Virus record (IMG/VR): IMGVR_UViG_2737471860_000003
Source of the DNA: a virus
Lineage: Duplodnaviria > Heunggongvirae > Uroviricota > Caudoviricetes
Reading direction: 5' to 3' (one strand)
DNA: 34,370 bases
Within the stretch, counting starts at the first letter, position 1; each line of letters starts with the position of its first letter. Below, one piece after another: positions 3,001 through 9,000 of the stretch. Position numbers: made by a program.

Positions 3001-6000
3001 GACTTCTGGGAGTTACGCTCGCCGTTAACAGACAACAGGGCAGAGAACGGTGCTGTCTTTTTCAGTTTGAGAGTGGCGGTGTTATCTGCGTGACCTGGTT
3101 CATCGATAGTACCCAGGTTAAGCACACTGACGGCACGCATATTATCAGCATCGATAAAGCAGCGGGTGCCTTCATCTGCAAGATCTTTAGAATAACGGGT
3201 AAAGTCATCGATGCTGGCAGTGGAAAGCGCACCACGGAAACGGAAGCGATTTAAATTAAATTTTTCCAGATCATGAATGCGGAAATTCTCAGGCAATGCC
3301 ACAGCATCGGCACCAATCTTACTGATAATTTCATTAACACCCTGAGCAGAAATAAGGGCATGGATTTGATTAATTGCGGTTGCGTCTAAGTTCTGAGACA
3401 TAATAAGTCCTCACTATATTAAGATATTCAGTGATGAGATAAATAATCAGGTTATTAAAAACGATATTAATGACCTGCTGCGCGGAGTTTTCCATCAGGC
3501 TCACCGGCAAGAGTCAGTAATTGTCCCTGGTCTTCCTGCAGAATAGTCAGGCGACCACCGCGATTGACATACATCGGCGTTTCGGTGGTGTCTTCTTCGG
3601 AAATTTTCCCGCGGTTAGTCGGGCGAACATATGAGAGTTTATGTTTGATTTTCACACGGTTCTCATCAAATGGTTCGATTTCCAGGTTGAGCGAGACCTT
3701 ACCTTTGGTTTTCGTGTTCATCACACCTGAAGCGACTTCACTGAGAACTGCGCCGATTTTGGTTTCAAATACGCCGCCGTCCAGCTCCCCGATAAATGCC
3801 TGCACATCAGTACTGCGTTCGCTAGCCATTTTGCTGCTCCTCATCATATCGACCCTGCAAGGTCGGTTGGTTTCTCCACAAAACAGAGAAGAACACCTGC
3901 GGTGGCAGCCGCCCGGATGGATTGGGTTATGAGCCCGTCGTCCGGTGATGCTCTTCTCTGTTTTGTAAAAAGAGCGGTACCAGCCGGAGGCAAGTGTACA
4001 AACTGGTACCGCCAAAGCAGTGGCTGTTGTGGTGACCGGTGCTGATCTCCGGCTTGCGGTTATTTCAGACTCTCACGGGCGTTTAATTGCCCCGCCGAAC
4101 AGCTCTTTTCCGCAATAGCTGCAATGTCTTTCGCGCATCAGCCTGCGCATTCACCACAACGCTGAGAGCACTTAGCCAGTTACGGCACCACACTTTGTCG
4201 CGGTTCCATAAATGCCCTCATCGTTGCACCCTGGTCTCTTCCCAGGCGTCAAACCGGATCGCCACGCTGGTTAGGCGTCTTATCAGCATCATCATTGACT
4301 TGCACATTCCGGCTACCTGGTTTGTTTGCCCGAGCAAGGAGTGGATTGTCCCCTTTAACGTCCCCAGACCGCTAACGACGCATGTGCCATACGCCGTGTT
4401 ACAACCAACCTTTCGTTAACAACAGTCTGTTGTTTGTTCAGATAATGATGCTACTAAAAGTAGCAAAAATCAACAACAAAAAGTAGAAGTGTGTATTTAA
4501 TTTTTAGTTTTCTATATAACGTTATGAATTAAAAGGTTTTTCACAGATGGGGTGATGTGGTGTAGTTACGTATAGAAAATATCGAGTGTCTTTTGTTTTG
4601 GTTTAATTATTAGGTTAATTAGATAGTAATAATTTGGGGGAAAATAGTGGGAACTATGGATACAACGGGTCAGGAACAGTGTTATTAAGCAGGCTACGAG
4701 TATAAAACCCGACCGGTTGGTCGGGCGAGAATTATGTTCGTTCTAAATCATGGTTATTGTATTACAGACACTTGACTACTGTTGAAACATCAGATTCTAG
4801 TGCTTCAATTTGTGCTCTATTAGCTTGGGTCGCCATACCATAGATAGTGTAACTCTTATGCTGCAGCCTACTTAAAGGGCATCCCTCATGGTTTATTATT
4901 GCTGCAAGAGTATTACCATCTTTGACATTTTGAACTCTCTCGAAAGTAGCCACATTTGTGAACAGATGAGGATGTGTATTTAACAGGTCATCCGTGATTC
5001 TTTTGATCTCTTCTGCATGTGATTTGAATGCTTTTGCTGCATCACTTTCATTAGTTCTTGAGCGGTTTTGTACGAAAAGGTGTAGTTCAGGTAGTTCGAT
5101 AAGGTTTTGCTTTGCTTCTTTGTTGAAATCTAAGAACATTTCATCTTGTTCTGACTTGTCAATAGACACTCCATAAATAAGTTTAACAAGGTTTTTTATT
5201 CCGCGAATTGATGCAGCATCGGCAGTGCAAGGGATAATTATTCTATTTGCCGCGACTACTCCCAATTCTGTGTAGCTGGCAAAACTTGGATTACAATCAA
5301 TAAAAAATGTTTTTGCTCTGTCAGAGATGTTTTTATCGGCTTCAAAAGATGCTATTAGATCTACCAGCAAAGATCGGCTTTTCTTCCATGCTTCTTTTAC
5401 TGGGGATGAGCCAATGTGAGATATTAAGCGTGAACAGATATCAAGATCGACATCACCAGGAAGAATATATAAGTTCTCTGGCTTTTTTGCATTAACATCA
5501 TGGGCTCGTACAAAGTAAGAAGATTCATTTCCTAAACGAGACAAAGGAGATTTGCTAAAACGCTCCTTGATATAACCTGCGATTGTAACATTTCTGTCTC
5601 GCAATTTATTTAGATTTTCTTCCCCGGTACCATTGCCACCAAGAATAATTTCTGAAACGTTTGATTGAGGGCATGAGTCAATAACCACAACATCTTGATC
5701 CGGATGAGATATAGCAAACTCAACGGCAAGATTATATGTAAGAAAAGTTTTTCCTACACCACCTTTGTTGTTCCATACTAAATATTTTGTATTGGTGGAA
5801 ATCATATCTGCTACCCCATCTGTCGCTTCAGTACGTTCATTAATCATTATCGTATCCTGTTGTATAGAATTGTCTATTATTTATGTTTTATTTTGTGTTA
5901 GTAACGCACCCAAAGATAACATATGGTCTTTATCTTTTATTACTTAGGGTAACAGCTCAGTGTTAATCCATTTTTATGGACCAATGTGCCAAATAAAATT

Positions 6001-9000
6001 TGTATAAAGATTTTCTATCCTTATCTTTTATCATCTGTGCTCGTTTGCTTTAACGATTGCTAGATGCCTAATTAAAGTCGATTATATTTAATCGACTCAT
6101 GAATCAGTGCCTTACCCATAACATAAAGCTGATCTTGCGACTTCTCATCAATGTACCATTTCTCATAGGCGGGGTTATCCGAAAGAACAGCTAGTTTGTT
6201 GCCTTGCATTTGTAGACGTTTAACATGGAAAGTCTTACCGTAAACGAAAGAGTAAACTCCATCAGTCTGGAAGTGGCGAACGGAAATGTCGACAAACAAT
6301 CGATCCCCGGAAACAAGAGTTGGGGACATACTATCTCCATTTACCGTCATAACTTTTATATCATTCTGAGAACGGTTTCCGAAAAGAGAACGGGCATGTT
6401 CAGTTGTGAACTCAATGGCGTAGAGCACATCAACATAGTCTGAAAGCATATAGGTCCCAGGTCCTGCGCTAACGCTAAGATCCAAAACTTCTATCCTGTA
6501 TACATCGGGCTTTGTTGGATTGGGGATGCTTGCCATTTCCTTACATTCCTCTCTATCTCCAACACCATATTCTAGATATGAAGCTGATACTCCAAGAGCC
6601 AACGCAAGTTTACTCATGACAGAGACACGTGGCTTCGCTGCGCCGATTGTGTATCGACGAGCCATTTCATATGTAACGCCCACAAGACTTTTGAGTTGAG
6701 TGACAGAGATTCCTTTGATTGTCATCAATTCGTTTAGTCTCTTGGCGAAATCTGGATACTTCTGTTCTTCTACCATAGGTAGAAGATTACTCACATCGCA
6801 CGCGCTAGTCATTTCTATTTTAAGTAGTTGCAATTTGCTATTTTAAGTAGCATCATCCCTCTGAATTTCAGAGGAGAAAGGTATGTCATCTCAAAACTAC
6901 ACAGAGAAAGCAGTAAAGGCTGCGGGAAAATCTTTATCTGAAGTAGCCCGTCGCTTTGGTTTTAAGTCCACTCAATCCGTCGCCAATTGGGTAATTAACA
7001 ATCAAGTCCCGTCAGAACGGGTTTTACAACTTTGTGAGTTGGGAAACTGGTCCGTGACCCCTCATGAACTGCGTCCTGATATTTACCCCAATCCAAATGA
7101 TGGATTACCTGAGTGCTATTCAAAAGTTAGCGGTTCAACTGCGTAAACGTAACCACAGAAACGAGGAATTAACCGTGGGTAAAGAACCTGAATGGAAAGT
7201 TGATAAGCAACCAGCATGGCTGGTGGCAGCAATACGAAGAACGATTGCTGATTTACCTCATGGCTATGAGGAAGCAGCGGAAATTCTTGGTTTGTATAAA
7301 TCTGATGATATCACCCCAGCGAAAGATCAATTGCATAACAGACTGCGTAGCGGTGGGGATCAAATTTTTCCACTTGAGTGGGCCATGGTTTTACAGGATG
7401 CCAGTGGTACCAAGCATGTAACGGATGCGATAGCGCGTCGTAGTAATGGGGTGTTTGTGCCGCTGGTGGACATTGATGACATTGACAATGGTGACATTAA
7501 TCAGCGGCTGATGGAGTCAATAGAATGGATTGGCAAGCATTCCCAGTACTTACGCAAGGCAACTGCTGATGGAGTTATTGACCGGGCTGAGCGTGAGCAA
7601 ATCGAAGAGAACAGCTACCAAGTAATGGCGAAGTGGCAGGAGCATTTAACACTGTTATTTCGTGTTTTTTGTGCGCCGGAAAAGAGTGACGCCCGCGAGT
7701 GTGCAGCTCCGGGCGTCGTGGCGTTTTGTGTCCGTGGAGAAACTAACGCATGAACAGTTTAACGGCAAATAACCGTTTGTCGCAACAGCTGGTGGTCAGT
7801 GTCGCTGCACACCTGTTGTTACGGCATGAATGCAGATTACCAAATCACCTGGCTGTAAGTAACCACAGAGAACTTTACCTGACTGTGGGGGGCGAGTTGT
7901 GCAGGAACTTAACCGCTGGTTTCGTGACGGAAGAGGACTTTATGTTCATGTTATTCGTTGGGAGCCAGAAACACAGCGCGTTATCTATCTTCGCAAAGAC
8001 TACCCGCATGAGTGCTTTAGTCCTTTGTGGAAATTCAGGCGTGATTTTGTTGAGTGTGAAGGACCACCAGCACATTGATTCTGCCATTCCGGGACGTTAC
8101 ACTGTTCAGGCACCTTATAAAGCGGGTGCCGGGATTGGCGTCCTGAAATTGATTACTGAGCATAACCGCGCTCATGCGGTTTTTTCGTGTCATGAGCATT
8201 GCTACGCCCAAATTATGGTGGGGCGTACAGGGCCGACTTCGGTCGGGCCGGGTTCGGTAGTCTCCGGTAACGCCAACCCTGTACGTCTCACCACCTCTGT
8301 GATTGGCGTCCCATGTGGTGAGTTTTCTAAAAAACTGACTACCGGGGCTGTCACCATGACTACTCTCCCAACCCTCTCTCAACCTGAAATTGCCATCGTT
8401 GATGGTCAGGCTGTTACTTCTTCTTTGGCTGTTGCTGACTTCTTCTCTAAACGTCATGACGATGTTCTGAAAAAGATCCGCATTTTGGATTGTTCTCCAG
8501 AGTTTTGTGCCCGCAATTTTGCGGAGACATCAATTTTGGTACGCCAGCCCAACGGCGGTACTCGCAAACTTCCTTGCTATCAAATAACCCGCGACGGCTT
8601 TGCGTTTCTTGCTATGGGGTTCACGGGGAAACGTGCTGCCCAGTTCAAAGAGGCATACATCAATGCCTTTAACCAGATGGAGAAACAGCTTTCAAAGCCC
8701 TCTGTACCGAGCGACGTTGCACATAACGCCAGCGTTCTCTATTCCTACATTTCATCAATTCATCAGGTCTGGTTGCAGCAGCTTTATCCCATGCTGGAAA
8801 AAGCTGAATCACCGCTGGCTGTAAGTCTGTATGACCGAATTAACGATGCGGCATTTCTTGCCCGTCTTATTCATTCGTCGCTGAACTCTTCAGAGGTAAG
8901 GGGGCGCAAATGATCCGGAATATTTTCAAACGATTTACCAATCAGACTTTCCGTTGTCCTCGCCCGGGTCAGTGGTACACCACGCCTGCAGGGCATGTTC

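Follow-up and report, generated by a model that had tools for sequence, protein, structure and literature searches.

A probable Escherichia coli orthologue of the anti-phage ATPase GiPD474 in a prophage immunity cassette

GiPD474 (STM474_RS13505, WP_000368620.1) is a gene of prophage Gifsy-1 in Salmonella Typhimurium 4/74, also found in Gifsy-3 of strain 14028s, and was described as an anti-phage gene by Bosma, Noireaux and Bowden (Appl Environ Microbiol, November 2025; PMC12724215). This study concerns a gene for a 361-amino-acid ParA-fold ATPase (4762-5847, minus strand) in an E. coli prophage recorded as IMG/VR virus IMGVR_UViG_2737471860_000003; the whole stretch of 34,370 nucleotides is referred to as the window. 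The window ATPase is most probably the E. coli orthologue of GiPD474, i.e., a self-contained single-gene anti-phage defence.

According to Bosma et al. (PMC12724215), GiPD474 is a single gene of 1086 bp in the Gifsy-1 immunity region. Its product has GGVGKT at residues 29-34 and contains an AAA_31 domain; in structure it matches ParA, MinD and Soj, and the authors labelled the C-terminal part 'unknown'. Deletion of GiPD474 from Gifsy-1 brings back the plating of phage Felix O1, and complementation re-establishes resistance. Expressed from a low-copy plasmid, the gene protects both S. Typhimurium LT2 and E. coli K-12, lowering plating in the latter by about 5 log for T4 and about 5.5 log for Alf5, and protection is seen at native as well as plasmid expression levels. 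The gene has no effect on phages T7, SP6, LPST153, Jbel, VpaE1 and S16; of these, Jbel and S16 belong to the T-even group and VpaE1 to the Felix O1 group, so that they are insensitive relatives of restricted phages. Expression in lysogens is high (>500 transcripts per million). Homologues, defined by at least 70% identity and at least 70% coverage, fall into three clades, namely Salmonella and E. coli (clade I), Klebsiella/Enterobacter, and Pantoea/Yersinia/Providencia, and are invariably adjacent to genes for a repressor, Cro and CII. As to the mechanism, the authors state that it is unknown, and our literature search found no other paper that mentions the GiPD474 protein.

The Gifsy-1 slot has an alternative occupant in strain 14028s, RemAIN (STM14_3218-3220; Sargen and Helaine). 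As described in PMC13043305, PMC9879122 and PMC12724215, RemAIN consists of the ParB-less ParA-like ATPase RemA, the immunity protein RemI and the HEPN anticodon nuclease RemN. The tRNA fragments by which RtcR is activated are produced by this system, which acts against co-resident as well as incoming phages by blocking them. Together with GiPD474, the involvement of ParA-like ATPases in defence is therefore documented twice. A sequence-only reading of the window, made without database searches, had singled out the ATPase gene as a candidate exclusion gene and supposed that no ParA-family single-gene defence system had been described; this supposition is superseded by the publication of GiPD474, and RemAIN also makes use of such an ATPase. 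HepS (Nature 2026), which was considered as a possible identity of the gene, is a different Gifsy-1 gene and was rejected.

Probable assignment of the window ATPase to the GiPD474 family

4762-5847, minus strand: coding sequence of the GiPD474-family ParA-fold ATPase (WP_052520854.1), 361 amino acids, from open reading frame (ORF) and domain calls

The gene is labelled 'ParA family protein' in RefSeq. Its product carries a deviant Walker A motif, KGGVGKT (residues 28-34), a Walker A' segment, VIDSCPQSN (of which IDSCPQSN spans residues 56-63), and a Walker B motif, FFIDCNPS (residues 181-188), that aligns with IIIDCPPS of Soj. The ORF and the three motifs had already been proposed from the sequence, and they were borne out by ORF calling, alignment and Pfam. 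The signature lysine K28, the P-loop residues K33 and T34, D57 of the A' segment and D184 of Walker B are invariant throughout the family in a 28-sequence alignment. Pfam matches are to AAA_31 (2e-16) and CbiA, and PHROG 164, 'ParA-like partition protein', matches residues 9-350 (3e-46); no Rex family is among the Pfam and PHROG matches. The equivalog level of the NCBIfam family ParA_partition is missed (48.9 bits versus a cut-off of 180).

Assignment of this protein to GiPD474 is very likely because cluster membership, sequence identity, length, motif positions and context all agree. WP_052520854.1 shares a 90%-identity cluster with S. Typhimurium sequences and is 93% identical over 354 amino acids to an S. 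Typhimurium allele, i.e., above the 70% identity by which the family was delimited. That allele is in turn identical at 353 of 354 positions to a full-length allele of 361 amino acids, which adjoins a 155-amino-acid CI-type repressor without S24 and a YdaS-type gene, a Gifsy-like arrangement. The window gene equals GiPD474 in length (1086 bp); its product has GGVGKT at the same residues, 29-34, together with an AAA_31 domain and structural matches to ParA, MinD and Soj, and the gene lies singly in the immunity region beside repressor, Cro-type and CII-type regulators. Identities to homologues from Klebsiella (83%), Yersinia (85%) and Pantoea (85%) fit the published clades. Under the name GiPD474 the window gene is already described, its E. 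coli homologues being placed in clade I. The earlier suggestion of a role in phage defence is thus backed by the published deletion, complementation and expression data on GiPD474, for an allele that is 93% identical. What RefSeq calls a 'ParA family protein' would here be an experimentally backed anti-phage gene for which PADLOC v2.0.0 (2023) has no matching model: a search of PADLOC-DB of that version with the ATPase gave a noise-level match to Drt5 only (E 0.006-0.015), in a helical stretch.

An AlphaFold2 model of the ATPase, built on the 28-sequence alignment, has a mean predicted local distance difference test score (pLDDT) of 86 and a predicted template modelling score (pTM) of 0.88. 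Its structural likeness is highest to DNA-binding ParA/McdA proteins, followed by ParA2, pSM19035 delta, DIP2308 (Protein Data Bank (PDB) entry 3pg5) and pNOB8 ParA; MinD (about 20) and NifH (19) score lower, Foldseek concurs, and MinD, FlhG and BcsQ are less similar to the fold than ParA/McdA. The best PDB sequence match is also 3pg5 (E 5e-6), and a search of the viral fold database BFVD returned two weak ParA-like matches only. By this model, the ATPase is predicted to hold one complete nucleoid-type ParA fold and no separate C-terminal domain. The extra length is accounted for by a disordered N-terminus (residues 1-16) and about 80 residues of family-specific insertions, and the order of strands and helices in the C-terminal third is that of the ParA C-terminal subdomain. 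This third, which also carries the most conserved motif of the family, NVKDGNTLAAIINHEG-PLS, had been regarded as a region of no recognisable family; the structure model, Foldseek and the span of the PHROG match instead make it part of the ParA fold. Profile alignment is too weak for this region, and the PDB profile and hhalign matches end at about residue 221. The segment NRSRTN (261-266) may correspond to the DARTN motif of Soj.

No nuclease, toxin or other effector domain was detected in the ATPase by Pfam or by fold, and distant relatives of 446-595 amino acids contain only AAA_31/CbiA in Pfam, with no fused effector. M15 is a possible alternative start, because residues 1-16 are of low confidence in the model and are missing outside the Enterobacterales. 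C59, C138, C185 and C207 are invariant in 28 family members from several phyla; in the NifH and Mrp branches of this superfamily, iron-sulfur or metal-bridged dimers occur.

Immunity cassette and accessory status of the gene

The window is an integrated prophage that adjoins zur/dinF/lexA in E. coli strain 104. Its early genes are of CPS-53 type (yfdP, yfdQ, yfdR, yfdN) and its tail genes of myovirus type. The features around the ATPase gene, which include the putative right (OR) and left (OL) operators, are as follows.

6072-6833, minus strand: CI-like repressor gene (HTH_3 and Peptidase_S24), from ORF and domain calls; the RefSeq form has 705 nucleotides (6072-6776)
6883-7146, plus strand: Cro-like gene of the YdaS helix-turn-helix family, oriented divergently from cI and completing the cassette of immunity genes in which the ATPase gene is carried
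6815-6850, no strand assigned: OR, a pair of CTATTTTAAGTAG repeats with 23-bp spacing, located between cI and the cro-like gene
4451-4486, no strand assigned: candidate OL, GCTACTAAAAGTAGC at 4451-4463 and CAACAAAAAGTAG at 4474-4486, with the 23-bp spacing of OR
4707-4726, minus strand: intrinsic-terminator-like hairpin, GCCCGACC-AACC-GGTCGGGT followed by TTTTATA, 35 nucleotides past the ATPase stop codon
5848-6071, minus strand: intergenic region between cI and the ATPase gene, 30% G+C

A CII-like gene, identified by domain calls, is also divergent from cI and, like the cro-like gene, lies beyond it. Pairs of half-sites with the consensus CTAYTTWAARTAG, 23 bp apart, occur at each end of the cassette, and the most fitting interpretation of the repeats at 6815-6850 and 4451-4486 is that they represent OR and OL, respectively. 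The window contains five matches to CTAYTTWAARTAG versus 1.3 expected, a number that was also reached in one of 100 shuffles, and two of the five are weak and lie outside OR and OL. Sites of the same spacing at both ends therefore place the ATPase gene between cI and OL with its leftward promoter (PL). The rexAB-like slot next to the repressor, as seen in the sequence-only reading, is in this way borne out by the cI neighbour and by the putative operators.

The transcription signals of the gene agree in part with what had been expected. A terminator of its own is indeed suggested by the hairpin at 4707-4726, the 8-bp stem of which has 6 G-C pairs, and a Shine-Dalgarno sequence, AGGA (5855-5858), is located 7 nucleotides ahead of the ATG. 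A promoter of its own did not hold up: no convincing sigma-70 site was found ahead of the gene, the sole consensus-like site ending 2 nucleotides before the ATG, and no terminator was detected between cI and the ATPase gene (5848-6071). Because of these two findings, it is at least as likely that the gene is read through from the cI promoter, as rexAB is. The intergenic region is AT-rich, as noted earlier, and the 8-bp inverted repeat reported there is present (AAAGATAA-N10-TTATCTTT, 5912-5937), but its significance did not stand: at least one such repeat occurs in 7-10% of shuffled sequences of the same composition, and neither the repeat nor the region around it is conserved in orthologous loci. 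On these grounds, near-chance statistics and lack of conservation, the repeat was rejected as an operator.

In a megablast search with window positions 3467-7146, over 3000 E. coli records share the left flank (yfdP and non-coding DNA) at 97-98% identity, and this homology ends at about 4418/4419, a mosaic junction just outside OL. Everything from OL through the ATPase gene, cI and OR to cro therefore forms a single mosaic cassette. Within this cassette, the ATPase gene is an accessory single-gene insertion ('moron'), since sibling prophages lack it, its G+C content deviates (38% for the gene and 30% for its upstream region, versus 51% for the window), and low-stringency blastn found it in only 71 of 5426 complete E. 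coli genomes (about 1.3%), always at 99% identity or more. The siblings are prophages with the same yfd backbone in extraintestinal pathogenic E. coli XM and in O26:H11 strain 11368, where the repressor directly follows the yfdP gap and the slot is empty.

In 70 of the 71 carriers, the gene is chromosomal. The remaining copy (99.9% identical) lies within a whole prophage on a 205-kb F-type conjugative plasmid, pEND_Eco 18005 (NZ_CP126947.1), where the prophage adjoins a frameshifted psiA and hok. Unless it is an assembly artefact, this copy means that a defence-carrying prophage can ride on a conjugative plasmid. A plasmid lifestyle of the phage itself was rejected, as the one plasmid-borne copy of the gene belongs to an entire prophage that had inserted into the F-type plasmid.

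In a sibling prophage, that of E. coli TUM10828 (NZ_CP134389.1; locus L013, 3325-5428), the cI/cro region matches that of the window at about 95%, and the slot is taken by another ParA-like ATPase. This protein, WP_000167381.1, has 358 amino acids and the Walker A motif KGGVSKT, is 23% identical to the window ATPase, lies close to 3pg5/DIP2308 (E 1e-21), and is encoded next to a 167-amino-acid ORF without a family match. About 133 complete E. coli genomes have a cI/cro match of 90-95% and do not contain the window ATPase gene; the second ATPase was confirmed in two of these records only, TUM10828 and H29. Occupancy of the slot in related prophages, a comparison that the sequence-only reading had called for, varies: the slot is empty in XM and 11368, and filled by a second ParA-like ATPase in TUM10828 and H29. 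Diverged ParA-like ATPases thus recur in the cI-adjacent slot.

Downstream of the ATPase gene (3830-4761), no credible ORF of at least 20 amino acids and no Rfam match was found, nor any further ORF of at least 40 amino acids on the ATPase strand, and nothing in this interval is recognisable. The only long ORF, at 4087-4419 (plus strand, TTG start), was considered as a partner gene and rejected; it is not annotated in RefSeq and looks spurious. Past the candidate PL/OL, the minus-strand region 3830-4450 comprises about 590 bp between OL and yfdP with 54% G+C and no annotated gene. Its RNA folds far better than shuffled sequences (z = -4.8, no Rfam match) and includes a long hairpin with 25-nucleotide arms (3878-3902 and 3942-3966). 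This element could be a leader, an antitermination (nut/put-like) element or a processing element of the early-left transcript.

Distribution of the family beyond Enterobacteriaceae

By sequence similarity, the GiPD474 family reaches well beyond the Enterobacteriaceae and is wider than previously reported. Full-length relatives with 53-66% identity are found in Campylobacter, Aggregatibacter, Acinetobacter, Moraxella, Alysiella, Azospirillum, Gallionella and cable bacteria. Even so, GiPD474-type proteins form a distinct clade of small size: 65 clusters (at 50% identity) attain E<=1e-30 among 1.84 billion representatives. Among phage records, megablast gave no match and tblastn retrieved five records only; Pseudomonas phage phi297 has a relative of 38% identity immediately after its CI-like repressor gene.

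In eight homologue contexts, no shared neighbour and no ParB gene was found, and the gene is always solitary. The contexts themselves are diverse. In Klebsiella, the homologue follows an S24 repressor in prophages of a different backbone; in Acinetobacter, it is part of an accessory cluster in the late region of a prophage, beside HicAB; and in Campylobacter, it belongs to a small integrase/AlpA island that also holds an SNase-domain gene as well as ParE and RhuM. The homologue of Azospirillum thiophilum (CP012401.1; locus L012, 1-13200) is inserted into a Type I restriction-modification (R-M) system, between hsdR and hsdS/RhuM/hsdM, beside an Mrr-type gene and an integrase; the locus also has an IS1595 transposase, a DUF6471 gene and an ORF of 142 amino acids with no assigned family, and is a typical defence island. 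Homologues in Aggregatibacter, Electrothrix and Alysiella are lone insertions among housekeeping genes.

Two small ORFs accompany the gene in some enterobacterial loci and have no counterpart in the window, namely a hydrophobic ORF of 39-49 amino acids between cI and the ATPase gene in Klebsiella, and a convergent ORF of 67-68 amino acids just downstream of the ATPase gene in Klebsiella and Salmonella.

L002, 3187-3390; L003, 1094-1213 and 2517-2720; L021, 3703-3852 and 5156-5359; L022, 2131-2337: small ORFs of the Klebsiella and Salmonella loci

Conservation is unusually high for a defence protein: members from Enterobacterales, Azospirillum and cable bacteria are 55-60% identical to one another, and identity per alignment column averages 66%. 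Conservation of this degree hints at a universal interaction partner, e.g., DNA. New in this study are the wide and solitary distribution of the family, the relative in phi297, the second ATPase in the same slot, and, by the structure model, the lack of a separate C-terminal domain.

Proposed mode of action and comparison with known systems

A protein of 361 amino acids that consists of a ParA fold only and gives 5 log of protection against T4 narrows the question of mechanism to one without an effector domain and without a linked partner. An ATP-dependent switch is tentatively proposed here. The ATPase would form an ATP-sandwich dimer via its signature lysine, as do ParA, McdA and Soj, and the ATP-bound dimer would bind DNA, either the nucleoid or phage DNA. 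The insertions and the diverged C-terminal surface would engage a component that only certain phages produce, and a post-adsorption step would thereby be blocked, for example replication, nucleoid takeover or packaging. Switching would be the task of the ATPase cycle, with no enzymatic effector involved. A phage-specific component is invoked because close relatives of the sensitive phages are insensitive. Such an ATP-dimer switch, acting on DNA, engaging a phage-specific component and blocking a post-adsorption step, is possible, though it falls short of probable.

Several points weigh against the orthology with GiPD474 or against the proposed switch. The identity with GiPD474 is drawn from cluster, length, motif numbering and context rather than from a direct alignment with WP_000368620.1. 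The phage data belong to the Salmonella allele, from which the E. coli allele differs by about 7%, and a few substitutions can shift specificity. No Walker-motif mutant appears in the available passages of PMC12724215, so that ATP dependence is assumed. DNA binding by the ATPase is suggested solely by its closest structural relatives, and hhalign against Soj left the C-terminal third unaligned, the region where the DNA-binding arginine of Soj is located. Lastly, 55-60% identity across phyla and lone copies in housekeeping contexts would also fit a conserved cellular partner.

Such a partner is central to the main alternative, by which the ATPase is a sensor only, detecting infection and killing or arresting the cell via an unlinked, conserved cellular partner such as a nuclease, divisome or MinC-like factors, or the translation machinery. 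RemAIN offers a precedent, with a ParA-like ATPase driving a nuclease in the same prophage slot, and GiPD474 has no effector domain; strong conservation across phyla and solitary chromosomal copies suggest a universal interaction. The activity of GiPD474 in Salmonella and E. coli alike was likewise counted in its favour, whereas the authors took activity in a heterologous host as independence from host-specific factors (PMC12724215). No linked partner gene was found in the eight contexts and none is known, and direct action on targets is common in the ParA family; a sensor-only role is thus considered rather unlikely. An equally doubtful and bolder extension of the switch model is that the bare ParA-fold ATPase is itself the effector, its DNA-bound dimer trapping, mislocalising or occluding the phage genome or a replication/packaging complex without nuclease, toxin or signal, or else that it is one of at least three ParA-like lineages (GiPD474, the DIP2308-like WP_000167381.1, and RemA) that were recurrently recruited to the cI-adjacent slot. 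If true, ParA-fold switches would be a general, unrecognised immune module that extends from Enterobacteria to Pseudomonas phages, Acinetobacter, Campylobacter and cable bacteria.

Lysogenic conversion is improbable. By this account, a positioning or regulatory ATPase like BcsQ, FlhG or MipZ would alter the envelope or cell division, and resistance would be a by-product, e.g., of a receptor change. Some sources do name homologues automatically as 'BcsQ' or 'septum formation inhibitor-activating ATPase', T4, Felix O1 and Alf5 are all contractile-tailed, and PMC12724215 suggests a post-adsorption block by GiPD474 and stops short of demonstrating it. However, Jbel, S16 and VpaE1 are unaffected, which argues for a phage-specific trigger over a general surface change; the fold is nearest to DNA-binding ParA/McdA, not to MinD, FlhG or BcsQ; and neighbourhoods with an R-M island and toxin-antitoxin genes fit defence. 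A true partition or maintenance ParA for the phage genome, or a regulator of the lysis-lysogeny decision, is more improbable still. The ParA fold and the PHROG and RefSeq labels speak for it, and P1 and N15 are temperate phages that use ParAB. Against this stand the lack of any annotated ParB, parS or other partition gene in the prophage, the downstream gap without a partner ORF, a ParA_partition score of 49 bits versus the cut-off of 180, chromosomal integration of the prophage with siblings that do without the gene, lone homologues outside mobile elements, and the published defence phenotype of the orthologue. The view of the sequence-only reading that this is not a partition protein is therefore upheld by the missing ParB annotation, the ParA_partition cut-off and the chromosomal location in 70 of 71 genomes.

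Compared with ParABS systems, the deviant Walker A motif and the ParA/MinD fold are shared with the window ATPase, whereas an adjacent ParB/parS on a segregating replicon is absent. The nucleoid-riding ParA types (ParA/Soj, 8ray, 2bek and 6iub; McdA, 6noo; pSM19035 delta; pNOB8 ParA) are 14-21% identical to the window ATPase, which differs from them by about 80 inserted residues, by the lack of a ParB/McdB-type partner and by a function in defence, most probably, rather than in cargo positioning. DIP2308 of Corynebacterium diphtheriae (3pg5, from structural genomics) is a ParA-like protein of about 360 residues, as are the window ATPase and WP_000167381.1; the latter represents a separate subfamily and is far closer to 3pg5.

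With regard to position and regulation, the analogue is lambda rexAB, and also stk of 933W and bstA of BTP1, which occupy the same cI-adjacent slot. The lambda exclusion genes lie between cI and OL/PL, as does the window ATPase gene, which has its own terminator-like hairpin and probably shares a transcript with the repressor; RexAB is a two-protein system, in contrast to the single ATPase, and there is no relationship in sequence or fold. RemAIN and the window gene have in common a ParB-less ParA-like ATPase, location in a prophage immunity region, expression in lysogens and anti-phage activity, to the extent that the last two carry over from GiPD474. RemAIN, however, comprises three genes with a RemA of 279 amino acids, and the window has a lone gene without a nuclease or immunity ORF beside it; according to Bosma et al. 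(PMC12724215), the GiPD474 and RemAIN regions have no homology to each other. GiPD474 and the window gene reside in different phage backbones, namely a lambdoid Gifsy siphovirus with a non-cleavable CI of 155 amino acids and a prophage with a CPS-53/yfd-type early region, a myovirus-type tail and an S24-type CI, respectively. The two are alike in length, in the position of Walker A, in the AAA_31/ParA fold and in the slot beside the repressor, Cro and CII genes.

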